A DNA stretch of 64,000 bases from an uncultured Planctomycetaceae bacterium (GTDB lineage Bacteria > Planctomycetota > Planctomycetia > Pirellulales > Thermoguttaceae), in assembly GCA_964475955.1 (NCBI GenBank), contig CAYYZY010000019.1:22-64021 (forward strand), read 5' to 3'. Positions 2,563 to 35,347 of this stretch are shown here, in pieces. Below the pieces are notes generated by a model. The model did not search any database and had not been told where the DNA came from. It saw only the letters and a list, made by a program, of their open reading frames with translations. Position numbers and translations under genes: made by a program. Numbering within the stretch: position 1 is the stretch's first letter; every line of letters begins with the position of its first letter.

Positions 2563-5343
2563 TCACGGGGCCGGGTTCAGAAGGAGGCTGACGGGCGCGA
2601 AGTGCGTCAGTTCCACGTCGAGCGCCCCGTCGCGAACCGGGACCGGCTCGCCCCGCGGCCGGCCGCGGAGATCGCACGGCTGGGCCTGCGAAACGTCCAT
2701 CCCCCCGGGAAGCCGCACGCGGCACGGCCCGTCGTCGCCCGACTGCTCCCAGAGGCGCAGCAGGATGCCGTCGCCGTCCGGGTTGGGGCCGAACGCGGTC
2801 ACGAGCACGCCCTTGCGCGAGAGGTCGATTCCGGATTGTGTCGCTGGCAGCGTGCCGGCGGGGCCGTCGAAGTACGCGGCCAGGCAAGGCGACCGCGCCT
2901 CCCACGACGGCGTGATCAGGTCGGCCTCGATCCCCTCGCCTTCGACCGCCCAGATGCGTACCCGCAACTGCCACGAGCCCTCGGTCCACTGCTGGAAGTT
3001 GGTGCCCCAGACGTTGTTGAAGAGACCCACGAACACCACGGGCTCGCGCTGGCCGAACTCCTTCGTATGCTGGTACAGGCCCGGCCGCCCGATGCTCACC
3101 AGCGGCGAGTCGAGCGGAGACAGCCCCACGCCTCGGCCGTCCGGGCCGGTGATCGTCATGCCGGTCGAAAGGCAGAAGACGTCGAAGTTCGACCCGCGCC
3201 GCGCGTCCTTCGCTGGGTCGATCACCGAGCCGAGCCGCCCCAGGCGGAACGTGGGGTCGTCGACGTTGAACGGCAGGCAGAGCCAACCGGCTTCGGGCCA
3301 TGGGTCGGGCTGCTTGTCGAACAGGGTGAAATCGAGGTCCACGTACGGCCGGTTGGGGTCGAGTTGCACCGCGAGATCAACTCCAAAGGGGACGTCCTCG
3401 CCGCGCTCGGCGCGAACCCGCCCCGTTGTCGACGTGAATGCGGCCGGCGCGAACTGGTTCGGCGAGGCAGCGGAGTAGGGGGCCTTGTCGGCAGGCGGGA
3501 GGTTGCCGCGGGCGAAGTGCGGGGCCCACCCGGGAATGTACTTCAGGTAGCTGTCGAAGTACGACTTGATGTTGTCGGCGTCGAATCGCTCGTAGAGGCA
3601 CTGCCCGAAGCCGTACCGGGACGACGCGTCGACCAGCTCCCGGCCTGACCGCTTGTCGACCAACGAGGTCACCACCCCGCGTTTCGGATCGAGACACACG
3701 CGGAAGTAGCGGTTCTCGATCGTCGCGCCATCCACCCCGGCGCGTTTCCGGTCGCCGGGCCCGGCGTCGGCTGGGACGTACGTCCGCCATCCCATCGCCG
3801 GCAGGTTCCGGGCAACGAAGCAGAGCCGGGTCTGCTTCGTCCGCACCGTCTCCGCCATGCCGGCTCCCGCGACGGTCGTTGTCTTGACGGACTGTTGCAC
3901 GTCGACGGGGATCGTCTCGCCCGTGCTTGCGTCCTTCAGGGCGTGGACCTCCCGAGCGGGCAGTTCGACGGACACCACTCCGTCGCGCCGCCAGGGGAGC
4001 GGATTGAACACGACGACCCGCGGGCCGTCGACGTTCACGGCCCGCGCCAACGTGTCGACCTGCTTCTCCAACGCCGGCACGATAGCCTCTTCCGCCTCGC
4101 AGATGTACGCCCCATGCTCGCCCCACGACTGCTCCAGCCGGGCGCAGTGCCCCTTCTCGCGCAGCTTCGCCCACTCGTCGCCGTAGTGATAGCCGAACGG
4201 GCTCATCGAGTAGCCCCACGTATGCTCGCCGTACATCAGGCTGCCCTCGTATGCCTCGGCGACGGCCCTGTCGACGGCCGGTGCTTCGACCCCCCAGGTG
4301 CGAAGCAGCGTGTTCAGCGCCTCGGTAGCCCCGATCTGCGGGCGGACGTTCCTGGCGAGCGCGGTCTCCTGGGGCATCGACATGATCCCGTGGATCCACG
4401 TATCGGGCATGTCGGCCCGGACGACCGGCAGGTCGGGCTTCTCGGCGAGGATCGCGTCGGCGAAGTCGGAGAGGCGGCCCATGCGGATCTTGGCGCCGGG
4501 CAGCTCGCGCTCGCCCTGGGCCAGGAGTTTTTGCACCTGGTCGGGCGGCGGCGGGCCGTGGTTGTCGCCCGTGTGGATCAGGGCGAGCCAGGTCTTGTAC
4601 GGCCAGTCGTCGGGCGGCTTCAGCCCGCTGCCGTAGCCGCTCGCCTCGTACATCGTGAGTACGCGCGAGCCGTCGGGCCCTTCCCACCAGAAGAGCCGGG
4701 GCACTTCGGGCGAGCCGCTGGCCGAGTTGCAGCCGAGGTGCAGGAAGTCGACGCCCGCGTGCGCGAGCACCGTGGGCACGATCCACATGTGCGACGGCAC
4801 GTCGGTCATCTTCGCGTCGCGTGCCGACGGCATCCCGAAACGCCGCGAAAGCCGCGAGGAGAACCCCATGCCGCGCACGAAGTCCTCCAGATCGAGCGAT
4901 TCGGTGTGCGTGGTGGCCGGCAGGGCGTGCCATACCAGGCGCCCCTCGCGGATCGCCCGCTCGATCCGCTCGCGCCGCTCGGGCGTTTGGCGGGGCCCGA
5001 GGATCTGGGCCATGGGCCAGCCGGGGACCGTCCACACGAAGCGATGCTCCGGGGGCAGCTCGCGCGTCGCGTCGCAGACGGCCAGCGCCTTATCGATCAT
5101 CGACGTGCGGTAGCGCTCGACCACCTCGCTGGCCAGCGCCGTGTAGCCGACGTCGAAGTGCGTCTTGAAGACGACGACCACCTGCTCCAGCGCCGGCTTG
5201 CCGGGCCGTTCCGGCGCGGCCGACTCCGCGGCGCGCAGGCGGAGGCCGAGCGCGGTCGAAAGGACGAGAAACAAGAGGATCGACGAACGAACCGGGATCG
5301 TGCGCGGCACGGCTGCGTCCTCCTTATTCAGCGCGAAGTTCAT
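2563..5343 (-). CDS. Secreted glycoside hydrolase, GH38-like (alpha-mannosidase-type N-terminal domain)
   Basis: 926-aa ORF with an N-terminal signal-like segment (SSILLFLVLSTALGL). VVVVFKTHFDVGYT resembles the GH38 H-x-H-x-D-x-G-W metal-site motif (first His replaced). Size and multi-domain length fit GH38. Family call is by motif only. Confidence 0.55.
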   Translation of the reverse strand: MNFALNKEDAAVPRTIPVRSSILLFLVLSTALGLRLRAAESAAPERPGKPALEQVVVVFKTHFDVGYTALASEVVERYRTSMIDKALAVCDATRELPPEHRFVWTVPGWPMAQILGPRQTPERRERIERAIREGRLVWHALPATTHTESLDLEDFVRGMGFSSRLSRRFGMPSARDAKMTDVPSHMWIVPTVLAHAGVDFLHLGCNSASGSPEVPRLFWWEGPDGSRVLTMYEASGYGSGLKPPDDWPYKTWLALIHTGDNHGPPPPDQVQKLLAQGERELPGAKIRMGRLSDFADAILAEKPDLPVVRADMPDTWIHGIMSMPQETALARNVRPQIGATEALNTLLRTWGVEAPAVDRAVAEAYEGSLMYGEHTWGYSMSPFGYHYGDEWAKLREKGHCARLEQSWGEHGAYICEAEEAIVPALEKQVDTLARAVNVDGPRVVVFNPLPWRRDGVVSVELPAREVHALKDASTGETIPVDVQQSVKTTTVAGAGMAETVRTKQTRLCFVARNLPAMGWRTYVPADAGPGDRKRAGVDGATIENRYFRVCLDPKRGVVTSLVDKRSGRELVDASSRYGFGQCLYERFDADNIKSYFDSYLKYIPGWAPHFARGNLPPADKAPYSAASPNQFAPAAFTSTTGRVRAERGEDVPFGVDLAVQLDPNRPYVDLDFTLFDKQPDPWPEAGWLCLPFNVDDPTFRLGRLGSVIDPAKDARRGSNFDVFCLSTGMTITGPDGRGVGLSPLDSPLVSIGRPGLYQHTKEFGQREPVVFVGLFNNVWGTNFQQWTEGSWQLRVRIWAVEGEGIEADLITPSWEARSPCLAAYFDGPAGTLPATQSGIDLSRKGVLVTAFGPNPDGDGILLRLWEQSGDDGPCRVRLPGGMDVSQAQPCDLRGRPRGEPVPVRDGALDVELTHFAPVSLLLNPAP

Positions 5344-5347
5344 TCGC

Positions 5348-5377
5348 GTGGGCCTCGCTGCGCTCGACCCACCCTAC
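5348..5377. repeat. REP-like hairpin, GTAGGGTGGGTCGAG family
   Basis: The minus strand reads GTAGGGTGGGTCGAGCGCAGCGAGGCCCAC (GTAG head plus GTGGG..CCCAC stem). It ends 4 nt before the GH38-like ATG. Confidence 0.6.
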
Positions 5378-5416
5378 ACGGCTGGGAAAACACCGATACG
5401 TACTACGCGGCATGGG

Positions 5417-6772
5417 TCAGGCTTCGAGGTACTTCTTGGGAAAGCTCCACGGATCGCGGTACTCGGGCACGGCGAGGCGCGCGGCCTGGGGGTCGCCGAC
5501 GATCTGCTCGGTGGCCGGGTCGAAACGTATCGAGCGGCCGACCTTGAGCGAGAGGTTTGCCAGCGTGCAGGCGAGATCGATCTTCACGTGGTACGCCACG
5601 TTGCAGCTCGGCTGGCGACGGCTCTTGATCGAGTCGAGCCATTCCCGCTCGTGCCCCGGCGACGGCGGAATCGACGGCTCCGGCGGCTCGACGCCCTTCA
5701 GCGCGTCGCCCTCGGGCACGATGTTGTGCACGCGGTAGTCGGAAACGAGCGTCCCGTTTAGCCCGTGGAAGTAAATGCCCAGATGATGCCGGCCGCCCTT
5801 CTCGCGCTGGAAGTTGAAGCCGTAGGTGTCGACGGCCGACGACATCCAGGTCATCGTCAGGCCGGGGTACTGCCAGTGGGCCTCCTGCGTGTCGGGCGCG
5901 TCGCCTGTGCCGCGGGTGACGAACCGCCCGCCGAAACAAGTGGTCGTCTCGGGGAATCCCAGCCCCAGGGCCCAGTAGGGCAGGTCGCAGATGTGCGGGG
6001 CCATACCGGGGATCATGCCGCCGCTGTAGTCCATGAACTGGGCCGTGTAGGCGGCGCTTCGGGCGAGGAGTTCGTTGTACCGGCGCTTGGGGCCGGGGCC
6101 GAGCCAGAGATTCCAGTCGAGGCCCTCGGGCGGCGCGGAGTCGGGCACCTGGCCGTAGCCCTCTTCGGTGCGGCGGTAGTTGAGGTAGGTTCGCACCACG
6201 CCGATCTCGCCCAGGTTCCCCGAGCGGACGTACTCCACCACGCGGCGGTAGTTGTCGCCTGCGTGGATCTGCGTGCCCACCTGCGTGACGACCCCGTGCT
6301 TCTCGGCCGCCCGCGCAAGGGCCAGGCCTTCGGCCGGGTAAATGGTCATCGGCTTCTGGACGTAGAGGTCCTTCTTGGCCTCGCAGGCGTGGATCGCCTG
6401 GAGGCAGTGCCAGTGCGGGGGCGTGGCGACGATCACGCCGTCGACGTCGTCCTGTTCGAGCATTTCGCGGTAGTCGTGGTACGGCTTGGCCGTCGGCTTG
6501 TACTGCTCGACGAGCCGGTCGCGCTTCGACTTCCACACGTCGCAGATGCCGGTGACCGCCACGTCGTCGTGCTCGGCGCAATGCTTCAGGTTGGCCGTGC
6601 CCATCAGCCCGGCCCCGATCAGGCCGACGCCGATGCGCTCACTGGGCGCGGGCTTGCCGTCGAGACCGAGGGCGCCGGCCGGGACCACGTGCGGCGCGGC
6701 AATTCCGGCGGCGCCGGCCGCGGCACCGCGTTCCAGGAAACCGCGGCGGGAGAGCTTCTGAGAATCGGACAT
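5417..6772 (-). CDS. Gfo/Idh/MocA-family oxidoreductase with twin-arginine (Tat) signal
   Basis: ORF 5417..6832. I prefer the internal ATG at 6772 (AGGAG upstream), giving MSDSQKLSRRGFLERGAAAGAAG (Tat motif). The NAD fold is IGVGLIGAGLMG and the core is VIVATPPHWHCLQAIHACEAKKDLYVQKPMT. Confidence 0.9.
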   Translation of the reverse strand: MSDSQKLSRRGFLERGAAAGAAGIAAPHVVPAGALGLDGKPAPSERIGVGLIGAGLMGTANLKHCAEHDDVAVTGICDVWKSKRDRLVEQYKPTAKPYHDYREMLEQDDVDGVIVATPPHWHCLQAIHACEAKKDLYVQKPMTIYPAEGLALARAAEKHGVVTQVGTQIHAGDNYRRVVEYVRSGNLGEIGVVRTYLNYRRTEEGYGQVPDSAPPEGLDWNLWLGPGPKRRYNELLARSAAYTAQFMDYSGGMIPGMAPHICDLPYWALGLGFPETTTCFGGRFVTRGTGDAPDTQEAHWQYPGLTMTWMSSAVDTYGFNFQREKGGRHHLGIYFHGLNGTLVSDYRVHNIVPEGDALKGVEPPEPSIPPSPGHEREWLDSIKSRRQPSCNVAYHVKIDLACTLANLSLKVGRSIRFDPATEQIVGDPQAARLAVPEYRDPWSFPKKYLEA

Positions 6773-6857
6773 GGAAACGGACTCCTGCGTGTAAGGAAGT
6801 GCTGGCTCATCCTGTGCGACCGGCTGACACAATCTGTAGCGAACGCCCTCCGCGCCG

Positions 6858-8213
6858 TTACGCCTCCAAATACTGTTTTGGGAACTTCCACGGGGCCCGG
6901 TACTCGGGCACGGCGAGCCGGGCGGCTTCCTCGTCGCCGACGATGCTCTTGGTCGCCGGGCCGAAGCGGATCGAGCGGCCCAGCTCGAGCGACAGGTTGG
7001 CCAGCACCAGCGGCACGTCGATCTTCGTGTGGTAGAACACGCTGCAACTCGGCTGCTTGCGGCTTCTGAGGCAGTCGAGCCACTCCCGCTCGTGGCCCGG
7101 CGACGGCGGGATCGACTTCTCGGGCGGCTCCTTGCCTTCCATCTGCTTCCCTTCCGGCACGATCTCGTGCATGCCGTAGTTGCAGTACATCGTGCCGTGG
7201 ACGCCGTGGAAGTAGATGCCCAGTCGCCGCCTGGGCACCGGCTCGCCGTGCAGGTCGAACCCGTAGCTGTTGGCCAGCATGCCCATCCAGGTCATGGTTA
7301 TCTGGGGGTACTGCCAGAGGATTTCTTGGACGTCGGGCGCGTCGCCGTCGTCGTCGATCACGAACCGGCCGCCCGAGCAACTGATGTTCGTCGGGTAGTC
7401 CAGCTCCAGGGCCCAGACGGGCAGGTCGACGATGTGCGGGGCCATGCCTGGGAGCCACCCGCCGCTGTAGTCCATGAACGAGCAGTGGTTGTAGCTGCTG
7501 GCGGTCAGGATGGGGTTGTAAGGGCGCATCGGCCCGGGGCCGATCCACATCTCCCAGTCGAAGCCCTGGGGGACGGGCGTCGGGGGGGCTTTGCCCACGC
7601 CGTCGCGGCCCTGGTTCATGACGTTGAACGTGCGGACCACGCTGATGTGCCCCAGGTTGCCCGAGCGCACGTACTCGACCACCCGGCGGTAGTTCTCGCC
7701 CGCGTGGATCTGCGTGCCGATCTGGCTGATGCGGTCGTGCTTCCTGACGGCGTTCATTACGGCCAGGCTCTCGCCGAGGTGGAGCGTCATCGGCTTCTGG
7801 AGGTAGAGGTCCTTGCCGGCCTCGCAGGCCTCGATCGCCTGGAGGCAGTGCCAGTGCGGGGGTGTGGCGACGATCACGGCGTCGACGTCGTCGGCCGCGA
7901 GCAGCTCGCGGTAGTCGCGATACGGCTTGGGCTTGCCCTCGTACTGCTTTACGGTGGCGTCGAGCCGGGCCTGCTGCACGTCGCACAGGGCGGCCACGGC
8001 AACGTCGTCGTGCTTGGCGCAGTTGCGCAGGTTCCCGCGCCCCATCCCGCCGCAGCCGATCAGGCCGACGTGGATCTTGTCGTTGGCCCCCGGGGCGCCG
8101 CCCTTCCCCAAAGCGCCGGCGGGAACGAAGTAGGGCGCCGACAGGCCCACCGCGCCGGCGGTCGCCGTGTTGCCCAGGAAGTGGCGTCGTGAGAGTCTCT
8201 CATCATGGGACAT
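6858..8213 (-). CDS. Gfo/Idh/MocA-family oxidoreductase with Tat signal (tandem paralog of 5417..6772)
   Basis: 451 aa. MSHDERLSRRHFLGNTATAGAVG, VGLIGCGGMG, VIVATPPHWHCLQAIEACEAGKDLYLQKPMT. Collinear with, and visibly similar to, the preceding gene along its whole length. Confidence 0.9.
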   Translation of the reverse strand: MSHDERLSRRHFLGNTATAGAVGLSAPYFVPAGALGKGGAPGANDKIHVGLIGCGGMGRGNLRNCAKHDDVAVAALCDVQQARLDATVKQYEGKPKPYRDYRELLAADDVDAVIVATPPHWHCLQAIEACEAGKDLYLQKPMTLHLGESLAVMNAVRKHDRISQIGTQIHAGENYRRVVEYVRSGNLGHISVVRTFNVMNQGRDGVGKAPPTPVPQGFDWEMWIGPGPMRPYNPILTASSYNHCSFMDYSGGWLPGMAPHIVDLPVWALELDYPTNISCSGGRFVIDDDGDAPDVQEILWQYPQITMTWMGMLANSYGFDLHGEPVPRRRLGIYFHGVHGTMYCNYGMHEIVPEGKQMEGKEPPEKSIPPSPGHEREWLDCLRSRKQPSCSVFYHTKIDVPLVLANLSLELGRSIRFGPATKSIVGDEEAARLAVPEYRAPWKFPKQYLEA

Positions 8214-8255
8214 GATGGCCTCCTCGGTATTCAGGATGGTGTGCTACGGGCGGGA

Positions 8256-9551
8256 TCATGGGTTGGCGATGGTCACCTCCGGCGGCGACGCGTAGCTCGA
8301 CCAAACGTCGGACAACTCGGCCTCGTCGGGGCCGCCCGGGTGGATCCAAAGGCGGTGATTCAGAACCAGCGGCTGGCCTCTGGGCAGCTTCACCTCGCGC
8401 GCGGCCGGATAGGCGGGCATCACGCAGTTGCAGCCCGGGTACTCGTGCAGCGGGTTCGGGTAGTCGAGGTTGGAAACGTGCTCCAGCAGGGCCACGCCCG
8501 AGGTGCCCTCTCCGCCGGGGAAAACGCCCGAGTAGTCGATCCAGGCGCGCCGCGGCTTCGCGTCCTCGGGGTCGAGATGGAGCGTGATCCGGCGTTCTTC
8601 GCACGGCGCGGCCCGAAGCGAGAACCCGCCGTAGCCGCGCTTGGGGCGCCCGCCGATGGCCACCTCGTCGACCAGGGCCGTAAGCTGCACCCGAACGTCC
8701 ACGAACCGCGCCCCCTCGGTCTGCCGGAACGCCCGGATGAGGACCTTCTCGCGCACGATCGGCGTCTCCTGCTTGCCGAACTTCCATACGTTGTCGGCCT
8801 CGATCGCGGCGAAGACCGGCCCGCTCTCGATCCGCGGCAGCCCCGCCGGGCGCGCCCACACGCCGGCCACCGCCCAGATGTCGGCCACCTGGTCCTTCCA
8901 CCGGGTGACGGGCCACGACCACCACACGCCGCGGTGGTGCGGGTGGTCTTTGGGGTAATCGGCGGTCAGGGCCTCGCCGTTCGGACCGAACAGCGGATGG
9001 ATGTAATCGCCCCGTTCGTAGCTCTCGCCGGGCGCGAAGTGCGGGTGCGTGCCCTCGGGGACCGGAACGTTGCCGTGGTTGTATCGCAGGACGGGCATCC
9101 TGGCCTCGTGGGCCGGTTGTTTCTGCCGGGCGCCCAGCTCGAACACGCCGACGGCCTCGCGGCGACCGTCGCGCTCGATTTGCCAGACCGACGGCGACTT
9201 CGCCGGAACGCGCGTGAGCCGAAACCGCCGCTCGCCGTCCGCGCCGGGCGGCATGATCCACCACAGCGTGCCCCGCTTCGAGCCCGGCTCGCTCGCCTCG
9301 AACTGGGCCGGAATCGTCACCGTGTTGGACTTCGGGACCTGGCCGTCCGGGTCGATCTCCGACAGGCACCAGTTGCCGGTCGAGACGCCCTCGCCCAGCA
9401 GCTTCGCCATGTCCACCGAGGCCGAAACCGGGGCCGCGACGCGCCCGGCCGACCCGCCGGGGTCGGACACGGTGAGGACGACGTCGCGGGCAAGGCCCAC
9501 GGGCGCGCCCGGGAGAAGACTCAAAGCGGAGAGCAGGACCAACCGACGCAT
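8256..9551 (-). CDS. DUF6807 / PmoA-family domain protein, secreted
   Basis: ORF 8256..9686. The likely start is ATG 9551 (MRRLVLLSALSLLPGAP signal). The motif DHPHHRGVWWSWP matches the conserved HPHHRG block I associate with PmoA/DUF6807 proteins, which commonly sit next to Gfo/Idh/MocA genes. Confidence 0.6.
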   Translation of the reverse strand: MRRLVLLSALSLLPGAPVGLARDVVLTVSDPGGSAGRVAAPVSASVDMAKLLGEGVSTGNWCLSEIDPDGQVPKSNTVTIPAQFEASEPGSKRGTLWWIMPPGADGERRFRLTRVPAKSPSVWQIERDGRREAVGVFELGARQKQPAHEARMPVLRYNHGNVPVPEGTHPHFAPGESYERGDYIHPLFGPNGEALTADYPKDHPHHRGVWWSWPVTRWKDQVADIWAVAGVWARPAGLPRIESGPVFAAIEADNVWKFGKQETPIVREKVLIRAFRQTEGARFVDVRVQLTALVDEVAIGGRPKRGYGGFSLRAAPCEERRITLHLDPEDAKPRRAWIDYSGVFPGGEGTSGVALLEHVSNLDYPNPLHEYPGCNCVMPAYPAAREVKLPRGQPLVLNHRLWIHPGGPDEAELSDVWSSYASPPEVTIANP

Positions 9552-9743
9552 CGTTCGCACCTCGCTGGCTTCGGGGAGTGTCGGGGCGGGAAGGCGCAAC
9601 GGCGCAAATTGTCCCCGATCGGCCGCCGCGTGTAAAGCGCCGCGCCAACCTGGGGCTTCGTGTGCCGTCCGCCTGCGTTTCCACACTCTGCGTGCGCGGT
9701 GTGCGTCACGGCACGGGATGTGCCTGCGACGGAAACCGCCAAG

Positions 9744-10748
9744 TCATTTCTTGGCCGGCCTTGCCGTTCGGGCCCAAGACCGCGCCCGGGCGATCGTCCA
9801 CGCGAGGGCTACGGCGGCCGCGCCCCATGCCAGGCCGGAAAGCACGCCGCCCAGCACCGCGCCGCGGCGCGCGGCGAACGTCTGCGCGCCCCCGGGCATG
9901 TGGCCGGCCAGTCGCTGGACCGCGAAGCTGAGCGGATACCCGTTCCGCGGAACGCCCGACCCCGGCGCATACCGCACCCAGTCGAGTTGCAGCCAAAGGT
10001 ACCCGGCCAGCAGGTCGACGAAATACCCCACAACGAACGCCAGGAAGAACACCTGCACGGGCCGCCACCGGCCGGCGCCGCTGAGGCCCAACGCGATGCC
10101 GGGGCCCATCACGAGGACGGCCAGGGCGGCGCCGACGTCCAACAGCGTGTCCCACGAGTACTTGCCGTACACGTAACGGTGCGTCCCCAGGATCACGGCC
10201 ACCAGCGTCACCAGCACGAACAGGCCGGCCAGCGAGAACTGCGGGCGCAAGCGGCGGCGACCGCCGGCTTCGGCGGCGTCTTTCAGCCGGTCTTTGCCCA
10301 GGCGCTCTCCGAGGAGATCCAGCAGGCGGTCGAAATCTCCCGCGCGGGGGAGCATCGACGACCGGACGACGTACCGACGCTCGGCCGACGCGATCTCGAC
10401 CAGCCGGGAGTCCCAAGACTTGCTCGTGCGGATCGAAGCGATCTCGTCGAGCGGCACGGTCGCGCGCGACGCCGACCAGCGACTGCGCGGAAGCGAGATC
10501 GCCGACCCGCCGACCTCAACCGCGCGCCGCCGGAGCCACCGGTCGAACGTCGTCCAGAATGCAAGGCCGAGGAAGAAGACGCCGAGCCCGATCAGCGGAA
10601 CGCCCGCGACCGGTCCCGCAAGCGGCGGCGCATCGGGGTAGCCGAATCGCACCTGATACGCGCCGGCACCGAAGCCGATCGCCGCCAGCGCAACCAGCGC
10701 GACAACCGACCTCCACGGCTCGCAGTACTCGAAACGCGTACTCCGCAC
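9744..10748 (-). CDS. Hypothetical multi-pass membrane protein
   Basis: ORF 9744..10871. The first ~40 codons are read through repeat elements, so the true start is probably an internal GTG (about 10748) preceded by GGGAG repeats. Several hydrophobic segments are present (VVALVALAAIGFGAG, PLIGLGVFFLGLAFW, LAGLFVLVTLVAVILG, and others). Confidence 0.55.
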   Translation of the reverse strand: MRSTRFEYCEPWRSVVALVALAAIGFGAGAYQVRFGYPDAPPLAGPVAGVPLIGLGVFFLGLAFWTTFDRWLRRRAVEVGGSAISLPRSRWSASRATVPLDEIASIRTSKSWDSRLVEIASAERRYVVRSSMLPRAGDFDRLLDLLGERLGKDRLKDAAEAGGRRRLRPQFSLAGLFVLVTLVAVILGTHRYVYGKYSWDTLLDVGAALAVLVMGPGIALGLSGAGRWRPVQVFFLAFVVGYFVDLLAGYLWLQLDWVRYAPGSGVPRNGYPLSFAVQRLAGHMPGGAQTFAARRGAVLGGVLSGLAWGAAAVALAWTIARARSWARTARPAKK

Positions 10749-10796
10749 TCCCCACGCCCTACTCTCCACTCCCGACTCCCTTCTCCCCACTCCCAA
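10741..10796. repeat. 7-bp periodic array (CTCCCNN) x8
   Basis: ctccgca ctcccca cgcccta ctctcca ctcccga ctccctt ctcccca ctcccaa, directly abutting the 108-nt hairpin element. Confidence 0.85.
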
Positions 10797-10904
10797 ACGT
10801 GGGGCACGTTTCCAACGTGCCCACAACCCAATGGCACGTTGGAAACGTGCCCCACAACATGCGCGCACCACGCGCGCATCATCGCGGTCAAAGACTCTAC
10901 TACA
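10797..10904 (+). repeat. 108-nt three-hairpin repeat element, copy A
   Basis: Hairpins: GGCACGTT-TCC-AACGTGCC (10803-10821), its inverse GGCACGTT-GGA-AACGTGCC (10833-10851), and ATGCGCGC-ACCAC-GCGCGCAT (10858-10878). Near-identical inverted copy at 15937-16044 and a partial copy at 63958-64000. Confidence 0.9.
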
Positions 10905-11544
10905 ATTCCTTGATCCGAATATCCTTGTACCACGCTTCGGTCGGCGGGCCGCCGTGGATCTGGAGGCCGATGAGGCCCTTCTGGGGGATCTTGGGATCGG
11001 GCTCGGTGTAGTCGACCGTCTGGTGGCCGTTGATCCAGAGCTGGATGCGGCGTCCCTGGCAGCGGATCACGTAGTCGTTCCAACGGTCGGGCTCGACGAC
11101 CTTGGATCGCTCTTCCTTGGGCGGACCGGCCAGCACCTTGCGGCGCCGCGACTCGTCGTAGAGGCAGCCCCACCAGCCCTCGCCCAGGTCGGCCTGGTAG
11201 CCGATCATCTCGTTCGGATGGGCCGAATCTCTCGGCGCCCGCCGGCTGCGAATCTGCACGCCCGCGTTGGCCCCCTTGCCCCGCAGCTTGAACTTGAGCC
11301 GCAGCTCGAAGTCGGCGTACACGCGCCGGGTGCAGAGGAACTCGTTTTGCGGCACGCGCTTTTCGAGGCTGCCGCCGACGATCGCGCCGTCTTCGATGCG
11401 AAACACGTCGAGGTTGCCCTGCCAGCCGTCGAACGTCTTGCCGTCGAAGAGGGCGGTGAAGCTCTCTTCGTCGGCCGGCTTGTCAGCCGCAGCGAGGGAA
11501 CCGGTCAGCAGAACAGTGCACAGCACGAGGGGCATTCTTCTCAT
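10900..11544 (-). CDS. DUF1080 (3-keto-disaccharide hydrolase-like) domain protein, secreted
   Basis: 214 aa with a signal peptide (MRRMPLVLCTVLLTGSLAA). FTALFDGKTFDGWQG, then ADFELRLKFKL..GANAGVQIRS, and C-terminus GLIGLQIHGG..AWYKDIRIKEL, the typical DUF1080 pattern. Confidence 0.85.
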   Translation of the reverse strand: MRRMPLVLCTVLLTGSLAAADKPADEESFTALFDGKTFDGWQGNLDVFRIEDGAIVGGSLEKRVPQNEFLCTRRVYADFELRLKFKLRGKGANAGVQIRSRRAPRDSAHPNEMIGYQADLGEGWWGCLYDESRRRKVLAGPPKEERSKVVEPDRWNDYVIRCQGRRIQLWINGHQTVDYTEPDPKIPQKGLIGLQIHGGPPTEAWYKDIRIKEL

Positions 11545-11614
11545 GGCAGACTCCTTGCAGCGGTCAAAGGGTGTCCCAGCAGCGTGAGCAAATCTCGGGG
11601 CCGAGGAGGCCCTG

Positions 11615-11824
11615 TTATGGTTTGAACCCCCAGCCCCCGTCTTTCCAGAACTCGGCGAAACCGTGCCGGACGATGCGGTAACGCCGGGCCACGGCGCGGA
11701 CGTATGGCAGCTTGTCGAACAGCGACGCGATCAGCACGTAGGGCGTCGAGACGATCAAGCCGGCCGGGAGCACGATCAGCCAGTGGAGCGCCCAAAACGC
11801 GACGTCCAGGAACAGTTGGTGCAT
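11615..11824 (-). CDS. Hypothetical small membrane protein
   Basis: ORF 11615..11926; the likely start is ATG 11824 (MHQLFLDVAFWALHWLIVLPAGLIVSTPYVLIASLF). No recognisable family. Confidence 0.4.
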   Translation of the reverse strand: MHQLFLDVAFWALHWLIVLPAGLIVSTPYVLIASLFDKLPYVRAVARRYRIVRHGFAEFWKDGGWGFKP

Positions 11825-11980
11825 CACGGGCCTCTGTACTCGGGTGGCGTGCGAGGCGCAGCGACTGGCCCCTCCGCCTAGCCCGGCGCGGGGTCTCCGG
11901 TACTCTGGGTCCAGAATAGCGTGCATGCGCCCCTGCCGGCAACTCCTTTTGCGGAAGAAGGGCGGGCACGCCTGGCCGCT

Positions 11981-12670
11981 TCAAGTTGCGGCCCGGTCCA
12001 GTCCTTCCAGTGCTGTCAGCCAGTTGTGAAAGTGCGGGCATGCTTCTCGGATGACTTGCAGGCCGATTTCGCCTGCCAGGAGCGGGCCATCGACATTCGC
12101 CGCGTAGTCGGGAAAGAGCTTCTGGATCCGGGCCTTCGGATGGGTGTCCTGCCCGTCGTCGATTCTCTCCGGGTTTTCGTAGTGGCGGCAGACTTCGGCC
12201 AACTCTCTCGCGGCCCTGGCGCGGTTCTCGAACAGCCGTTCGAACGTGCTGGGCTGGGCTAAGAGCAGCGCCTCGAACTCGTGGAGCTGGAGATACGGGA
12301 GGAAGCGGTCGTCGGCGATCTCCTCGGCCAGGCCGGCCTCAAGAGCCTGCACGCGCCGGTAAGGGTCGCTTTGCCCCATCGCCCGGTCGTAGCCGGGAAA
12401 ATCGTTCGGCAGTCCGTACAGATCGACCATCATGGTGAAGCGCACGTCCTCTCCGCGGTCTTCCCTCAGCCATCGGGTCATATCGGCGAGGGCGTGCACA
12501 AACGTGCGGAGCAAGCCTCCTCGCGGAACCCGGCCCCTACGTCGCGAAACAGGGCCCGTCAGCCGCGGCCTTCCCAGCATCACGCCGTACCGCGCGAGAT
12601 GTGGCGTGAGAATTTGCGAGGCGAAGGCTTGTTCCGTTTGCCCCTCAACCGTCATGTGGAGCCGCATCAT
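11981..12670 (-). CDS. DUF4276-family protein (Toprim-like partner of ABC-type ATPases)
   Basis: The start ATG 12670-12668 overlaps the upstream ATPase TGA (ATGA). MMRLHMTVEGQTEQAFASQIL (EG-x-x-E block), FTMMVDLYGL, LQLHEFEALLLAQP and ACPHFHNWLTAL match my recollection of DUF4276. The longer listed ORF (to 13066) is an out-of-context extension. Confidence 0.7.
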   Translation of the reverse strand: MMRLHMTVEGQTEQAFASQILTPHLARYGVMLGRPRLTGPVSRRRGRVPRGGLLRTFVHALADMTRWLREDRGEDVRFTMMVDLYGLPNDFPGYDRAMGQSDPYRRVQALEAGLAEEIADDRFLPYLQLHEFEALLLAQPSTFERLFENRARAARELAEVCRHYENPERIDDGQDTHPKARIQKLFPDYAANVDGPLLAGEIGLQVIREACPHFHNWLTALEGLDRAAT

Positions 12671-13782
12671 CAGGCGGGCCCTCCCCCCAGGACGTTTTTC
12701 TCCCACAGTTCCCGGATGCTGTACTCCGCCAGCCACTCCTCCAGGCTTTCGCGCGTCTGCCGCGTGAAGGTTGAGCCGTCTTCGTCTCGCTCGACGACCA
12801 CGATGTCTTCCGGCTCGAATGCGTCCAAGAGGCCCGCCGACTGCGTGGCGACGATGACTTGGCAGTGGTGCGAGGCCTTTCGCATCAGGGCCCCGAGGAC
12901 GTTCTTGGCGAACGGGTGCAACCCCAGCTCCGGCTCGTCGATCACAATGACGTTGGGCAGGTCCTCCGTCGGCTGCGATAGAAGCGAGATCAACGCCATC
13001 GCCCGGAGGGTGCCGTCGGAGAGCTGATGCGGCCCGAAAACCAGATCCGAGGATTTCTCGCGCCAATTCAGGATGATGTCCTTGCCACTGGGACCGCTCG
13101 GCTCCAAGTCGAAATCAGCGAAGAAAGGGGCAATCTGTCGAATGGTCCCCACAATGCGCTGGTACGCTGTGGGCTCGTCGCGGTTCTTGAGCCTGTATAG
13201 GATGGCTGCGAGATTCCCCGCGTCGGGCCTCAGCCAGCGGTCCTCCCCCACGTAGCAGTACTGACGGATGCGGGCCGTCTCGGAAGTATCGTGAAACTGG
13301 TACACGCGGCAGTTGTTCAGCAGATGTCGAAACACACGCGCGACCGGGTCACCTCCCTCCGCCGCCTCAGTCACTCGTGTTTCCGTGTGACCCGCGCCCA
13401 ACTGCACGCGCTGCGGATCGCCCTGCCAGTCAGCACGCAAAAACTCCAGCCGCTCCTCTGCGAAGACAAGGGTGTCGCCCGCGGCGTGGAAAAGCCGCAT
13501 ACGGTATGTGTCCTGCCCATTGTCCACCTCGAAAACCAGGCGAGCTTCCATCTGGGGCGTCACTTTCGGCCCGTAGTGGAGCATGGAGCTCGCGCGCCCC
13601 GTGCCCGCAACAAACTGCTGCAAGCGCCCCCCCATCATCTCGTTGACCATCTTGAAGAACGATACCAGGTTGCTCTTGCCTGCGCCGTTCGCCCCGATCA
13701 TCACGTTCAGCCGCCGTATTTCAAGATCGACGGACTTGATCGACTTGAAACCTCGTAGCTGGATGTGGCTCAACCTTGACAT
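12670..13782 (-). CDS. ABC-type / AAA_21-like ATPase (SMC/RecF-like N-terminus)
   Basis: Likely start ATG 13782 (MSRLSHIQLRGFKSIKSVDLEI). Walker A is GANGAGKSN, the signature-like block is QLSDGTLRAM, and Walker B is NVIVIDEPELGLHP. VIVATQS sits at the H-loop position. Confidence 0.85.
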   Translation of the reverse strand: MSRLSHIQLRGFKSIKSVDLEIRRLNVMIGANGAGKSNLVSFFKMVNEMMGGRLQQFVAGTGRASSMLHYGPKVTPQMEARLVFEVDNGQDTYRMRLFHAAGDTLVFAEERLEFLRADWQGDPQRVQLGAGHTETRVTEAAEGGDPVARVFRHLLNNCRVYQFHDTSETARIRQYCYVGEDRWLRPDAGNLAAILYRLKNRDEPTAYQRIVGTIRQIAPFFADFDLEPSGPSGKDIILNWREKSSDLVFGPHQLSDGTLRAMALISLLSQPTEDLPNVIVIDEPELGLHPFAKNVLGALMRKASHHCQVIVATQSAGLLDAFEPEDIVVVERDEDGSTFTRQTRESLEEWLAEYSIRELWEKNVLGGGPA

Positions 13783-14033
13783 GTTCCGGCCCTCGGGCAG
13801 GCAACGCAGAGCGGCGCCGCACAGATTGGTGTGGTGTTGCCGTCCGCTGTGACAAGAAGTGAAGTATGGAACCGCCACGGTGCTTTAGCATAGCGTCTCG
13901 GCGGCGACCCTGGTAGGCGGAGCTCACCGGCCCTCGCTCCGCCAGCAGCGGGGATGGGGGCCCCTGGAATTCCGCCGCGGCCTCACCTAAAATCTTGGTC
14001 TTTGCCATGTCCTAAGCGAAAGGGATTACGACC

Positions 14034-15866
14034 ATGCGATCCGATACCGTCAAGAAGGGTGATGCCCGAGCCCCCCATCGAAGCCTGCTCCGCGCCTGCG
14101 GCGTGGGGGAGGACGACTTCGACAAGCCCTTCATCGCCATCTGCAACAGCTACACCGACATCGTGCCCGGCCACGTCCACCTCGATAAGGTGGGCCAGTT
14201 CGTCAAGGAGTGCGTGCGCGAGGCGGGCGGGATGCCGTTCGTGTTCAACACGATCGGCGTCGACGACGGCATCGCCATGGGCCACACCGGCATGAAGTTT
14301 TCGCTCCCCAGCCGCGAGCTCATCGCCGACTGCGTGGAGACGGTGATCCAGGCCCACTGCTTCGACGGCATGATCTGCATCCCCAACTGCGACAAGATCA
14401 TCCCCGGCATGCTCATGGCCACCGTCCGATGCAACGTCCCCACGGTGTTCGTCAGCGGCGGGCCCATGGAGGCCGGCAAGACGCCCGACGGGCGGAACGT
14501 CGACCTGATCGACGTCTTCAAGGCGGCCGCCGCCAAGCAGACCGGCAAGGCCACCGCCGACGAACTCCTGGCCGTGGAAAGGATCGGCTGCCCCACGTGC
14601 GGCTCCTGCTCCGGTTTGTTCACGGCCAACAGCATGAACTGCCTCTGCGAGGCCCTCGGACTGGCGCTTCCGATGAACGGCACGCTGCTGGCCACCAGCG
14701 CCGAGCGCAAGCGGCTCTTCCGCCGGGCCGCCCAGCGGATCGTGGAAATGGTCCTCCAGTTCGAGAAGGTCGGCGCGGGACACGGGCTCCTGCCGCGGGA
14801 GATCGTCACGCCGGACTCGGTCGACAACGCCATGGTGCTCGACATGGCCATGGGCGGAAGCACTAACACGGTGCTCCACATGCTGGCCGTGGCCCACGAG
14901 GCGGGCGTGGCCTACGACATGAAGCGGATCGCCGAGCTCAGCGGCCAAACGCCCAACGTCTGCAAGGTCGCCCCCAGCAGCCGGTACCACGTGGAAGACG
15001 TCCACAACTCGGGCGGCATCCACGGCATCCTGGGGAGCGTCGACCGCGGCCGGCCCGGCCTGCTCAACCTCGACTGCCCCACCGTCTCCGGCAAGCCCCT
15101 GGGCGAAAACATCGCCGAGTACGACGTGCGCGCCGAAACCGTCGCCGAGGAGACGCTCCAACTGGCCGCCGTCACCGCCCGGGGCGTGCGAAACAACCAG
15201 GGGATGAGCGTCGAGTCGACCGTCCGCTCCGTGCGCGAGCTCTCCAGCGACCAGCTCGGCTTCGACCCGTACGACTGCATCCGCGAGGTGGAAAACGCCT
15301 ACAGCCCGGAGGGCGGGCTGGCCGTGCTCTACGGCAACCTCGCGCCGGAGGGGTCGATCGTCAAGACGGCCGGCGTGCTGCCCGCTATGCTCCGGCACGC
15401 CGGCCCGGCCGTGATCTTCGAATCGGAGACCGACGCGTACGAGGGGATCGTCGGCGGCCGGGTCAAGGAGGGCGACGTGGTCGTGATCCGCCGCGAGGGC
15501 CCCCGAGGCGGACCCGGCATGCAGGAGATGCTCGCCCCCACCAGCGCCATCCAGGGCATCGGGCTCGACGACTCGGTCGCCCTGATCACCGACGGCCGCT
15601 TCTCCGGCGGCACGGCCGGCGCCTGCATCGGCCACGTCAGCCCCGAGGCGGCCGCCGGCGGCCCCATCGGCCTGTTGGAGCCGGGCGACGTGGTCGAGAT
15701 CGACGTCCCGGCCGGCAAGCTCGCCGTGCGCCTCACCGACGAAGATCTCCAGGAGCGCAAAGCCCGCTGGACCCCGCCCGAGCCCCGCTTCCAAGGCAAC
15801 TACCTCGCCAAATACGCCTCCATGGCCACCGATGCCGCCCACGGCGCGGTGCTGAAGTGGGATTAG
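14034..15866 (+). CDS. ilvD: Dihydroxy-acid dehydratase
   Basis: 610 aa. KPFIAICNSYTDIVPGHVHL, GVDDGIAMGHTGMKFSLPSRELIAD, CDKIIPGMLMA, FVSGGPMEAGK, and C-terminal ITDGRFSGGT. Confidence 0.95.
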   Translation: MRSDTVKKGDARAPHRSLLRACGVGEDDFDKPFIAICNSYTDIVPGHVHLDKVGQFVKECVREAGGMPFVFNTIGVDDGIAMGHTGMKFSLPSRELIADCVETVIQAHCFDGMICIPNCDKIIPGMLMATVRCNVPTVFVSGGPMEAGKTPDGRNVDLIDVFKAAAAKQTGKATADELLAVERIGCPTCGSCSGLFTANSMNCLCEALGLALPMNGTLLATSAERKRLFRRAAQRIVEMVLQFEKVGAGHGLLPREIVTPDSVDNAMVLDMAMGGSTNTVLHMLAVAHEAGVAYDMKRIAELSGQTPNVCKVAPSSRYHVEDVHNSGGIHGILGSVDRGRPGLLNLDCPTVSGKPLGENIAEYDVRAETVAEETLQLAAVTARGVRNNQGMSVESTVRSVRELSSDQLGFDPYDCIREVENAYSPEGGLAVLYGNLAPEGSIVKTAGVLPAMLRHAGPAVIFESETDAYEGIVGGRVKEGDVVVIRREGPRGGPGMQEMLAPTSAIQGIGLDDSVALITDGRFSGGTAGACIGHVSPEAAAGGPIGLLEPGDVVEIDVPAGKLAVRLTDEDLQERKARWTPPEPRFQGNYLAKYASMATDAAHGAVLKWD

Positions 15867-15936
15867 CCGCCCGCGGGCTCCCCCCACCGTCGTAGGGTGC
15901 CTGGTCTGCGTAGGTTGGGTGGAGGGTCATGAGTGC

Positions 15937-16044
15937 TGTAGTAGAGTCTCTGACCGTGATGATGCGCGCGGGGTGCGCGCATGTTGTGGGGCACGTTTCC
16001 AACGTGCCATTGGGTTGTGGGCACGTTGGAAACGTGCCCCACGT
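15937..16044 (-). repeat. 108-nt three-hairpin repeat element, copy B (inverted relative to copy A)
   Basis: tgtagtagagtctctgaccgtgatgatgcgcgcggggtgcgcgcatgttgtggggcacgtttccaacgtgccattgggttgtgggcacgttggaaacgtgccccacgt is the reverse complement of copy A with a few substitutions, mostly in loops or spacers. Confidence 0.9.
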
Positions 16045-16382
16045 CGGGTCGAGGGTCACGACACCCAGGCGGGCGAAGACTGGCAAGAACTGGGAAAGCG
16101 CCTTCGAGATTCCATCTGGGGTGAGCTTTCCCTTCCCAGCGAACACATCCCTTGTTTGAAAAGGGCCCAGGGCTGGTGTCTTTTCGGAATTGCCCCACAT
16201 GGGGTAAGGCGATAGACTGCCGGTAGATCGGCATGTCGAATTGAGCACGTTCTGTTGGCTCACCTTGGCTGGCTTTGCCTGCTTTGCTCGCCTTGCTTAT
16301 CTATCCAGTCCGCTTTGCGAGGCGACGCGCGTTGCCACCTGCGGACCTCGGCAAGTCCCCCTCAAAAATGGTGGTGTGGCCC

Positions 16383-25519: not shown

Positions 25520-26827
25520 ATGCAGAACCAGTCGAATCTCAGTCGGCGCGATTTTCTCGGGATTTCCGGCGCGGGCGCCCTGGCCCTTTCCTGCGGCGTG
25601 TGGAGCGAGGCGGCCGAGTCGCCCTCCAACTCGCCCAACGAGAAGTTGAACATCGGCTGCGTGGGCACGGCGAATCGGGCGGCGGGCGACATCAACGGGG
25701 TGAAGGGCGAGAACATCGTCGCCCTGTGCGACGTCGACAAGAACTACCTCGACCGGGCACAAAAGCAGTTCCCCGAAGCCCGAACCTACGCCGACTACCG
25801 CGAGATGATCGACAAGGAGAAGGGCAAGCTCGACGCCGTCGTGGTGGCCACGGCCGACCACAATCACGCCCCGGCCGTGATGCGGGCGATCCGGGCCGGG
25901 ATGCACGTCTACTGCGAGAAGCCGCTCACGCACACGGTCGAAGAGGTGTCCCTGGTCGCCGAGGCGGCCAAGAAGCACGGCGTGGCCACCCAAATGGGAA
26001 CGCAGATCCACGCCACGGAGAACTACCGGCGCGTGGTCGAGGTCATCCAGGCCGGCGCGATCGGCGACGTGACCGAAGTGCACGTTTGGGTGGGTAAGGC
26101 GTGGGGAGGGGGCGATCGCCCTGAAGGCGAGCAGGAGCCGCCCGAAAACCTCAATTGGGACCTCTGGCTCGGCCCGGCCCCGTGGCGCCCCTACTGGCCC
26201 GGCAAGTATCACCCGGGACAATGGCGCCGCTGGTGGGACTTCGGGCAAGGCACGCTCGGCGACATGGCCTGCCACTACGTGGACCTCCCATTCTGGGCCC
26301 TCAAGCTCCGCCACCCGGTCACCTGCGAGGCGGAAGGCCCCGAGGTCCACCCGGAAACCTGCCCGCTCGGCCTGATCGTCCGCTACCAGTTCCCCGAGCG
26401 CGAGAGTCTTCCCCCGGTGAAGCTCACCTGGTACGACGGGAACCTCATCCCCCGCGAGGTAGCCGGCGAGCGCGTGCCGGGCTCCGGCGTGATGTTCATC
26501 GGCAGCGAGGGGAAGATGTACGCCAACTACACGAACTACAAGCTCTTCCCCGCCGAGAAGTTCGCCGGTTTCGAGCCGCCGGCGCCCAGCATTCCCCGCT
26601 CCATCGGCCACCACGCCGAATGGATCAAGGCCTGCAAGGACGGCTCCCCCACCACCTGCAACTTCGACTACTCCGGCGCGCTGACCGAGGCGGTGCTGCT
26701 GGGGAACGTCGCCTTCCGCACCGGCCGGAAGCTCGAGTGGGACGCCCAAAGCCTCAAGGCCACCAACTGCCCCGAGGCCGACAAGTACATCCGCAAAGAG
26801 TACCGCGAAGGCTGGGAGATCGTGTAA
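25520..26827 (+). CDS. Gfo/Idh/MocA-family oxidoreductase with Tat signal (third copy)
   Basis: MQNQSNLSRRDFLGISGAGALAL, IGCVGTANRAAGD, VVVATADHNHAPAVMRAIRAGMHVYCEKPLT. Confidence 0.9.
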   Translation: MQNQSNLSRRDFLGISGAGALALSCGVWSEAAESPSNSPNEKLNIGCVGTANRAAGDINGVKGENIVALCDVDKNYLDRAQKQFPEARTYADYREMIDKEKGKLDAVVVATADHNHAPAVMRAIRAGMHVYCEKPLTHTVEEVSLVAEAAKKHGVATQMGTQIHATENYRRVVEVIQAGAIGDVTEVHVWVGKAWGGGDRPEGEQEPPENLNWDLWLGPAPWRPYWPGKYHPGQWRRWWDFGQGTLGDMACHYVDLPFWALKLRHPVTCEAEGPEVHPETCPLGLIVRYQFPERESLPPVKLTWYDGNLIPREVAGERVPGSGVMFIGSEGKMYANYTNYKLFPAEKFAGFEPPAPSIPRSIGHHAEWIKACKDGSPTTCNFDYSGALTEAVLLGNVAFRTGRKLEWDAQSLKATNCPEADKYIRKEYREGWEIV

Positions 26828-35289: not shown

Positions 35290-35324
35290 GGACGGGCGCC
35301 AGGGCCAACCGTCGCCCCGCGGCC

Positions 35325-35347
35325 GTGGGGCACGTTTCCAACGTGCC
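35325..35347. repeat. Solo copy of the GGCACGTT-TCC-AACGTGCC hairpin (half of the 108-nt element), possible terminator
   Basis: gtggggcacgtttccaacgtgcc, identical to one arm of the 108-nt element, about 36 nt downstream of the HEAT gene stop. No U-tract follows. Confidence 0.6.

Follow-up and report, generated by a model that had tools for sequence, protein, structure and literature searches.

In 2024, HEC-01 (Hma-embedded candidate 01) was reported from Hma (helicase, methylase, ATPase) loci, through which the family was discovered, as a candidate that pairs an ABC ATPase with a TOPRIM protein, and a conserved OLD-like metal site was noted in it (Payne et al., bioRxiv 10.1101/2024.01.29.577857). 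Candidates of that series had to be present in over 100 genomes, with the expectation that independent systems would often lie outside hma loci (bioRxiv 10.1101/2024.01.29.577857). A cold-seep study found HEC-01 to be one of the commoner candidate systems of environmental genomes and reported a representative as protective against at least one of the phages T4, T5, and T7; a wastewater survey of 2026 still filed it as an unvalidated candidate. In the methylation-associated defense system (MADS), deletion of mad3 or mad4 weakens defense, and full phage resistance requires both. In the PARIS paper, MADS3-4 is counted with the ABC ATPase plus TOPRIM systems, and the Menshen study placed DUF4276 in the Toprim superfamily and linked it to Mad4. 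In PARIS, our template for the mechanism, the ATPase scaffold frees its nuclease upon trigger binding, and the nuclease cleaves tRNA. Here, we analyzed a stretch of 64,000 nucleotides (nt) from an uncultured Planctomycetaceae bacterium (assembly GCA_964475955.1, contig CAYYZY010000019.1, positions 22 to 64,021), hereafter the window, which carries an ABC ATPase gene followed by a gene for a DUF4276 protein at positions 11981 to 13782. This locus is a stand-alone chromosomal HEC-01 copy in a Thermoguttaceae-like planctomycete.

Family membership and organization of the gene pair

Both proteins were compared with Pfam and with PADLOC-DB v2, which served as the reference for defense profiles. The ATPase matched AAA_21 (1e-22) and also AAA_15 and SMC_N. 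Its partner matched DUF4276 (2.6e-48) at profile positions 1-192 of 192, in agreement with a first-pass annotation made from the letters of this DNA alone, which had predicted a DUF4276-like protein of 229 amino acids (aa). Among the PADLOC profiles, the ATPase matched HEC-01A (PDLC04175; 1.8e-137, 456 bits) with residues 2-369 on positions 4-362 of 363, and the DUF4276 protein matched HEC-01B (PDLC04188; 6.7e-69, 230 bits) with residues 1-224 on positions 12-226 of 230. The matches of the ATPase to the Old, GajA, AriA, AbiLi, NsnB, and mad3 profiles were far weaker and partial. Profile searches had been proposed in the first-pass annotation as a check, and they bore it out: AAA_21 and DUF4276 were found, and both HEC-01 models were matched at full length. 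With the two profiles matched by genes that are adjacent on one strand, the pair almost certainly belongs to PADLOC HEC-01. The pairing is already catalogued, being described as HEC-01, a barely tested candidate anti-phage family. The same annotation had regarded the pairing as not experimentally characterized; this is outdated with respect to its description, since HEC-01 has been described and tested twice with a mixed outcome, and is roughly right with respect to its mechanism.

Two minus-strand open reading frames (ORFs) were confirmed, at 13782..12670 and 12670..11981. The features of the ATPase gene, of the junction, and of the upstream region are as follows.

12670..13782, minus strand: HEC-01A-type ABC ATPase gene, 370 aa, with ATG at 13782 and the stop codon TGA at 12672-12670
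11981..12670, minus strand: HEC-01B-type DUF4276 gene, 229 aa, for a divergent Toprim-like putative nuclease
13669..13695, minus strand: Walker A motif GANGAGKSN, ATPase residues 30-38
13204..13260, minus strand: conserved segment YCYVGEDRWLRPDAGNLAA, ATPase residues 175-193, with low model confidence
13003..13026, minus strand: ABC signature region QLSDGTLR, ATPase residues 253-260
12913..12951, minus strand: Walker B and D-loop VIVIDEPELGLHP, ATPase residues 278-290
12673..12711, minus strand: ATPase C-terminal tail ELWEKNVLGGGPA, whose codons carry GGAGG (12684-12680)
12668..12672, minus strand: junction TGATG; base 12670 belongs both to the ATPase stop codon and to the DUF4276 start codon, for translational coupling
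13783..14033, no strand assigned: divergent intergenic region between the ATPase gene and ilvD, 251 nt, the presumed promoter region of the pair

The Walker A, signature, and Walker B motifs, on which the earlier description of an SMC/RecF-like ABC ATPase was based, are all present at these coordinates, which were verified. Across 27 aligned ATPase homologues, G30 and N32-N38 of Walker A are invariant, as are Q253, S255, D256, G257, T258, and R260 of the signature region and D282, E283, P284, E285, and G287-P290 of the Walker B/D-loop. The AlphaFold2 (AF2) model of the ATPase had a predicted local distance difference test score (pLDDT) of 81.6. A Foldseek search with this model gave its best E-values, about 2e-14, for PtuA chains of Septu/retron I-A, with a template modeling (TM) score of about 0.5; the highest TM score among the top matches, about 0.6, was that of the SMC head 4i99. 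PtuA and the heads of SMC, RecN, and Rad50 were matched at E-values of 1e-12 to 1e-14. The protein therefore combines the Walker A, signature, and Walker B/D-loop motifs with the ABC head fold by which an ABC ATPase is recognized. By sequence, its best match in the PDB was OLD 6p74 (4e-8).

Two parts of the ATPase are modeled poorly. Residues 171-189 have a pLDDT below 50, yet R182, W183, L184, D187, N190, and A192 are invariant in the 27 homologues, and the segment YCYVGEDRWLRPDAGNLAA is a candidate partner- or ligand-binding loop. The C-terminal residues 363-370 also have a pLDDT below 50; the tail pattern EKNV[LI]GG[GRQ]P is kept across 84 loci and reads EKNVLGGGP here. Conservation of these poorly modeled parts, residues 171-189 and the tail, suggests that they are interaction surfaces.

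Translational coupling at 12668-12672 had been proposed on the basis of an ATGA overlap. The coupling stands, whereas the junction reads TGATG, with one shared base. The sequence GGAGG lies 9 nt upstream, at 12684-12680, inside the last ATPase codons, and GGAG or GAGG is found within 28 nt upstream in 52 of the 84 loci. ATGA junctions are the most frequent in these loci (36), followed by TGATG (20), and the remainder have gaps of up to 9 nt, except for two. The ABC ATPase and the DUF4276 protein are both intact and are co-translated. A promoter and terminator scan around the pair gave nothing that exceeded shuffled sequences, with a sigma-70 consensus that may not suit planctomycetes; no sigma-70 match lay in the intergenic region between the ATPase gene and ilvD, and the sole match of the scan falls inside the ATPase gene.

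The DUF4276 protein as a putative Toprim-like nuclease

The DUF4276 protein, whose N terminus is MMRLHMTVEGQTEQ, has no solved relative by sequence. Its AF2 model (pLDDT of 86.5, predicted TM score of 0.86) contains, in order, a strand (residues 2-8), a helix (11-26), a strand (30-32), a helix (58-70), and a strand (76-83); strands and helices thus follow each other as in Toprim. We compared the model with 350,542 PDB chains by using Foldseek. The top two matches were the Toprim-containing C-terminal region of OLD from Xanthomonas campestris (6njv and 6njw), with E-values of 1.4e-4 and 3.5e-4 and a probability of 0.99, and the PARIS complex 8ux9 ranked 18th (E-value of 0.13). A comparison with Toprim folds, another check put forward in the first-pass annotation, thus placed the OLD C-terminal region on top, at TM scores of 0.33-0.39. 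The conserved blocks of the protein are listed below; the EG-x-x-E and MMVDLYG blocks had been pointed out before and were found at residues 7-14 and 80-86.

12629..12652, minus strand: TVEGQTEQ, DUF4276 residues 7-14; E9 ends predicted strand 1, and E13 lies four residues on
12392..12433, minus strand: MMVDLYG-LPNDFPG, with MMVDLYG at residues 80-86; D83 ends predicted strand 76-83
12269..12286, minus strand: LHEFEA; the close subfamily has invariant H130 and E131, and all wider copies examined retain E131 and E133
12125..12145, minus strand: THPKARI, a conserved P-K/S-K-R block

In OLD of Burkholderia pseudomallei (BpOLD), the metal ligands are E400, E404, D455, D457, and E508 (PMC6755086). 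The second Asp of its DxD motif holds waters only, and single mutants are tolerated (PMC6755086). In the DUF4276 protein, E9, G10, Q11, T12, and E13 are invariant, plasmid copies included. The invariant E9 follows predicted strand 2-8, as is expected of the Toprim glutamate, and the spacing of E9 and E13 (E-x3-E) is that of E400 and E404 in BpOLD. D83 sits where the first Asp of the Toprim DxD motif sits, and both D83 and D90 are invariant. The conserved residues of LHEFEA are candidate second-metal ligands, and the THPKARI block is a candidate for supplying a catalytic lysine. Further conserved residues are K179 in the P-K block and C211/H213. With regard to the conserved glycine that follows strand 2 in Toprim, T38-G39 are invariant just past predicted strand 30-32, in a part of the model where residues 41-47 have low confidence.

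Two observations weigh against a Toprim assignment. The Foldseek TM score of the model to OLD is only 0.33-0.39, and the DxD motif is incomplete, reading D83-L-Y85, with Y or F at its second position in all aligned copies, including those on plasmids. As Tyr or Phe takes the place of the second DxD Asp throughout, we call the protein a divergent Toprim. DUF4276 was assigned to Toprim independently in two papers (Payne et al., bioRxiv 10.1101/2024.01.29.577857; Menshen study). Together with the fold matches of the predicted model, this supports the view that the DUF4276 protein is a divergent Toprim-like putative nuclease.

Spread, genomic history, and surroundings

A genome scan found at least 558 stretches encoding relatives, of which 80 were kept. 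They came from Planctomycetota, Chloroflexota, Cyanobacteria, Chlorobi, Desulfobacterota, Bacteroidota, and others. All 84 loci examined have the ATPase gene immediately upstream of the DUF4276 gene and in the same orientation, so that the conservation of the pair as neighbors, which the first-pass annotation had made a point to verify, was confirmed. A protein search with the ATPase gave at least about 8000 matches. Many of them are 64-70% identical across phyla, including one in the metagenome-assembled genome (MAG) of a Veillonellaceae member, and such identity between phyla implies wide horizontal spread. One relative, P0222, is a single polypeptide of 540 aa with AAA_21 and DUF4276 and is 65% identical to the window ATPase; it represents a natural fusion of both HEC-01 genes, with an OLD-like architecture, or possibly a gene-calling read-through.

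Relatives of the neighboring ilvD gene put the host in or near Thermoguttaceae. The order of ilvD and, divergent from it, ATPase-DUF4276-DUF1080 recurs in the loci L005 and L090-92 (ilvD 87-90% identical) and in L002-4 (77%). The same site is empty in L093/94 (ilvD 87% identical), L095 (83%), and L096/97 (81%), where DUF1080 lies directly divergent from ilvD with a gap of 254-396 nt, and the pair is absent from this locus in Thermogutta terrifontis. The occupied L090 and the empty L093 are sisters, with 93.6% ilvD identity and 200/200 bootstraps. When these two were aligned, similarity extended to about 30 nt beyond DUF1080 and resumed about 24 nt before ilvD, and neither a remnant nor a direct repeat was found in the empty site. 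In neighbor-joining trees of 45 taxa with 200 bootstraps, the four syntenic copies of the pair formed one clade (181/200 for the ATPase, 163/200 for DUF4276, and 190/200 for the concatenation), the topology of which agrees with that of ilvD. The ratios of nonsynonymous to synonymous substitution rates (dN/dS) against L090 were 0.105 for the ATPase, 0.191 for DUF4276, and 0.186 for ilvD. Since the two genes have dN/dS values of 0.10-0.19, both are judged, from sequence comparison, to be under purifying selection and functional.

The module has been gained and lost among close relatives. The simplest reading is that the pair is an old resident beside ilvD, with one insertion, vertical descent, and repeated loss; the alternative is a spread of the pair between relatives through conserved flanks. 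Either the module was already in the ilvD/DUF1080 intergenic site when the lineages with 77% ilvD identity diverged or it spread by flank homology. In L096 (7947-9353) and L097 (4224-5630), a different HEC-01A-like AAA_15/21 ATPase of 468 aa (PDLC04182, 7.5e-51) is encoded directly downstream of ilvD, and the contig ends before any partner gene is visible. This hints that the ilvD neighborhood repeatedly hosts HEC-01-like modules.

A lower GC content had been reported for the ATPase gene, at 57-58%. The dip was found, whereas the values were not: GC was 61.8% for the ATPase gene and 63.9% for the DUF4276 gene, against 68.1% for the window. Relative to the 33 other ORFs of the window (mean of 68.1%, standard deviation of 2.2), the z-scores were -2.9 and -1.9, respectively. 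GC at third codon positions (GC3) was 0.80 and 0.77, against a mean of 0.874 with a standard deviation of 0.049 (z-scores of -1.5 and -2.2), and equally low GC3 was found in other ORFs of the window. Codon-usage log-likelihood z-scores were -1.3 and -1.5. The composition check proposed earlier therefore came out for GC and less so for codon usage; the dip of the pair is real, modest, and not unique. Across 54 HEC-01 loci (the window and L002-L084), in hosts of 38-68% GC, the GC of the pair was under that of its flanks in 53, by 5.6 points on average, and followed that of the host (r = 0.89, slope of 0.85). Syntenic relatives of the window show the same GC3 deficit. The deficit is thus a trait of the HEC-01 family, a constant offset rather than a transfer signature. 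Being family-wide, the dip says nothing on recent transfer, and being intrinsic, the deficit is no dating tool for transfer. Amino-acid composition, low expression, or AT-biased turnover could be its source.

The 10 proteins flanking the pair are GFO_IDH_MocA, DUF6807, DUF1080, ilvD, FKBP, an extracytoplasmic function (ECF) sigma factor, a DUF1559 protein, and three unknowns. Among the 10 nearest ORFs, none is a transposase or mobility gene; the remainder of the window was only summarized as family counts. The window contains no tRNA gene, and a search of all of it against Rfam gave no match; there is therefore no tRNA-linked integration site. The remainder of the window gave a single cross-match, to mad3, mad8, and AriA, by an ATPase at 30777-31739; it was considered as a second defense ATPase and rejected, as it is an ABC transporter with an ABC-2 permease neighbor.

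The ORF at 11615-11926 was considered as a third gene of the module and ruled out. It contains a small minus-strand gene (11615-11824) for a probable membrane protein of about 69 aa (MHQLFLDVAFWALHWLIVLPAGLIVSTPYVLIASLF...), which lies between DUF4276 and DUF1080 only in the genome of the window. As no other HEC-01 locus has this gene, it does not belong to the module. Its family has 22 representatives (E-value of 1e-3 or below), mostly of about 69 aa, in a library of 1.84 billion proteins.

A dispersed intergenic element of about 119 nt was found at 10786-10904, at 15937-16055 (inverted), and at 63958-64000, where it is cut by the window end. It folds into a perfect 23-bp hairpin and an 8-bp GC hairpin, with a minimum free energy of -64 to -74 kcal/mol, and has no Rfam family match. 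Its 24-nt palindromic core also occurs at 35324-35347 and in the related MAG of L093/L094. The element looks like a repetitive extragenic palindrome (REP)- or miniature inverted-repeat transposable element (MITE)-like repeat of the lineage. Its two inverted copies, which are 93% complementary, enclose the 5-kb DUF1080-to-ilvD block (10786-16055). A composite transposon bounded by these repeats was rejected: the bracket takes in ilvD and DUF1080, whose synteny with the pair persists without the repeat, and the idea is further weakened by the third copy and the core copy elsewhere in the window and by the core in the related MAG.

Elsewhere in the window, two tandem GFO_IDH_MocA paralogues (5417-6832 and 6858-8213, minus strand) are 72-81% identical at the nucleotide level, with a spacing of 1441 nt, and a third, more distant, inverted copy (25520-26827, plus strand) lies about 19 kb away. 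About 40 kb from the pair are two toxin-like genes (53018-53467 and 54364-54732, minus strand), for a PemK/MazF-like toxin (4e-16) and a DUF5615/PIN_10 PIN-like protein (1.3e-26).

Proposed function and comparison with known systems

An immune role for the pair, as a HEC-01 candidate defense module, is the reading that we favor, with some reserve. Some relatives lie beside or inside known defense systems. On the Aeromonas media plasmid pMC64A (L100), positions 4117-10166 encode a WYL protein, an SNF2-related helicase, the HEC-01 ATPase, DUF4276, and a DNA methyltransferase on the same strand; this run is flanked by insertion sequence (IS) elements, followed by a DEAD/DEAH helicase, and amounts to an Hma-like locus that contains the pair. 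In Acinetobacter, the pair adjoins VapBC on a mobilizable plasmid of 11 kb. The Aeromonas and Acinetobacter plasmid copies match the same HEC-01 sub-models, and 13 relatives are plasmid-borne in all. Within 6 kb of the pair, a minority of 26 loci have type I restriction-modification (RM) systems (two loci), a type I specificity subunit, PtuA (1.9e-121), DarT/DarG, or ShosA.

As for the mechanism, a sequester-and-release scheme may be drawn up tentatively by analogy with PARIS, OLD, Gabija, and Septu, and we would not count on it. The ATPase would dimerize on ATP, hold the nuclease inactive in a complex, and sense a phage-derived cue. Sensing would release or activate the DUF4276 Toprim nuclease, which, once freed, would cut nucleic acid with the help of a divalent metal, either DNA or, like AriB, tRNA/RNA. 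Such cleavage could stop phage replication or host growth.

Several observations count against an immune role. None of the 10 flanking proteins matches PADLOC, and no defense gene lies within 7 kb; of the defense context suspected in the first-pass annotation, the association seen in relatives therefore holds, and the window copy itself lies in no defense island. Three other planctomycete loci, annotated with Pfam, also have mostly metabolic neighbors, with DarT/Macro about 4 kb upstream in one of them. The neighborhood counts above have no background control and are to be read as association in some genomes, not as enrichment. No relative was found in IMG/VR by a pattern scan with the DUF4276 alignment or in 50,697 phage genomes by tblastn, and a fold search of BFVD gave nothing at an E-value of 0.001 or below. 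Long retention at one site by housekeeping genes is unusual for a defense system. In the only careful test published, made in E. coli, the HEC-01 representative gave no protection against the phage panel (bioRxiv 10.1101/2024.01.29.577857). The positive cold-seep report gives few details, and the planctomycete copies are known from sequence alone.

Other explanations were weighed against these data. The pair may be a selfish module of the addiction or abortive-infection type, in which a Toprim toxin is restrained by the ATPase and loss is costly, the role not being phage defense. Pfam annotates AAA_21 as 'putative AbiEii toxin, Type IV TA system', a relative sits beside VapBC on the mobilizable Acinetobacter plasmid among the 13 plasmid-borne relatives, and the window copy has been retained for long without defense neighbors. 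However, the module was cleanly lost in close relatives, and the addiction is therefore not strong; MAD3/MAD4, which are related, add to phage resistance, and toxin and defense roles are not mutually exclusive. We regard this explanation as unlikely. A housekeeping function of the host, for example in the repair of DNA or the maturation of RNA (cf. ATPases of the RecF/SMC type and RNase M5, a Toprim enzyme), would fit the ilvD/DUF1080 position kept down to 77% ilvD identity, a dN/dS as low as that of ilvD, the lack of phage-borne relatives in the collections searched, and the lack of defense in Payne et al. (bioRxiv 10.1101/2024.01.29.577857). It seems a little less probable still, as the pair is absent at the same site in sister genomes and at the locus in T. 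terrifontis, has a patchy distribution over phyla, the ATPases of planctomycetes and of the Veillonellaceae MAG being 64-70% identical, and occurs on plasmids and embedded in Hma-like and type I RM loci.

From the GC content, the first-pass annotation had proposed horizontal acquisition next to ilvD. A recently acquired low-GC island would account for relatives with empty sites and for the pair having the lowest GC of the 34 window ORFs scored. This proposal did not hold up: L005/L090 and L002 carry the pair at the same site, in the same orientation, and in the same clade, their GC3 deficit is equal, and the GC deficit is seen in 53/54 loci; the lack of a tRNA gene in the window and of a mobility gene among the 10 nearest ORFs points the same way. 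We consider a recent island very improbable. A decaying, non-functional remnant, to which the weaker codon adaptation of the pair relative to its neighbors might point, is the least credible explanation, given full-length matches to both models, the presence of all invariant residues, and dN/dS values of 0.10-0.19. A broader conjecture, also an unlikely one, is that of a module long domesticated in this Thermoguttaceae clade and retained at its site by ilvD for a host-level role, in persistently useful broad defense or RNA/DNA processing. The nuclease would then represent a Toprim variant of its own (E-x3-E, D-x-Y/F, D90, HExE, PK), unlike OLD in chemistry or target, for example in cleaving RNA/tRNA with altered metal coordination. 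Docking of the nuclease or sensing of the trigger would fall to the GGGP tail and to the invariant, disordered loop of ATPase residues 171-189.

The locus leaves the picture of ABC ATPase plus Toprim immunity unchanged and is a routine annotation rather than a discovery. Its interest lies in that HEC-01 is still filed as an unvalidated candidate, without biochemistry, though it is abundant in environmental genomes. This lineage keeps the module at one site under purifying selection yet repeatedly loses it, which provides natural plus/minus genome pairs, and the consistent lack of the second Toprim aspartate sets a concrete mutational and biochemical agenda.

Among the systems compared, HEC-01 is the closest to the pair, with full-length matches to the A and B profiles, the same gene order, and the same combination, in which an ABC ATPase is paired with a TOPRIM (DUF4276) protein. 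The window copy differs in being stand-alone rather than Hma embedded, with housekeeping genes on either side in a planctomycete chromosome, and the representative tested in E. coli has a different sequence. MADS of Pseudomonas aeruginosa resembles it in that MAD3-MAD4 are an AAA_15/21 ABC ATPase beside a DUF4276 protein. However, the score of the window ATPase on NCBIfam MAD3 is 101 bits, against a cutoff of 420, and mad1, mad2, and mad5-8 are missing from its neighborhood, whereas MAD3/4 act within an eight-gene system. With PARIS, the pair shares the two-gene architecture of an ABC ATPase (AriA) and a Toprim effector (AriB). AriB is a DUF4435 protein, whereas the effector of the window matches only DUF4276 and HEC-01B; AriA models match the window ATPase partially (74.9 bits, residues 226-320), and this ATPase is smaller (370 aa versus about 55 kDa).

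OLD and GajA also combine an ABC ATPase with a Toprim nuclease, and the OLD C-terminal region is the best fold match of the DUF4276 model. There, both domains are in one chain, whereas here they are two ORFs, each with its own stop and start. The Old and GajA profiles match the ATPase part only, the second Asp of DxD is Tyr here, and no UvrD-like partner (GajB or the class 2 helicase) is found among the flanking genes of the window. For Septu/retron I-A, the likeness consists in the solved PtuA chains, which gave the best E-values for the ATPase model; the partner here is Toprim-like and not the HNH nuclease PtuB, and the NCBIfam PtuA score is far below the cutoff. Menshen, in its NsnC variants with DUF4276, and AbiL (AbiLi with the RloB-type AbiLii) likewise pair ABC ATPases with DUF4276/RloB Toprim effectors. 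The matches of the window ATPase to NsnB (1.8e-16) and AbiLi (9.9e-20) are much weaker than that to HEC-01, and the window pair has no NsnA/NsnC or RloB match.

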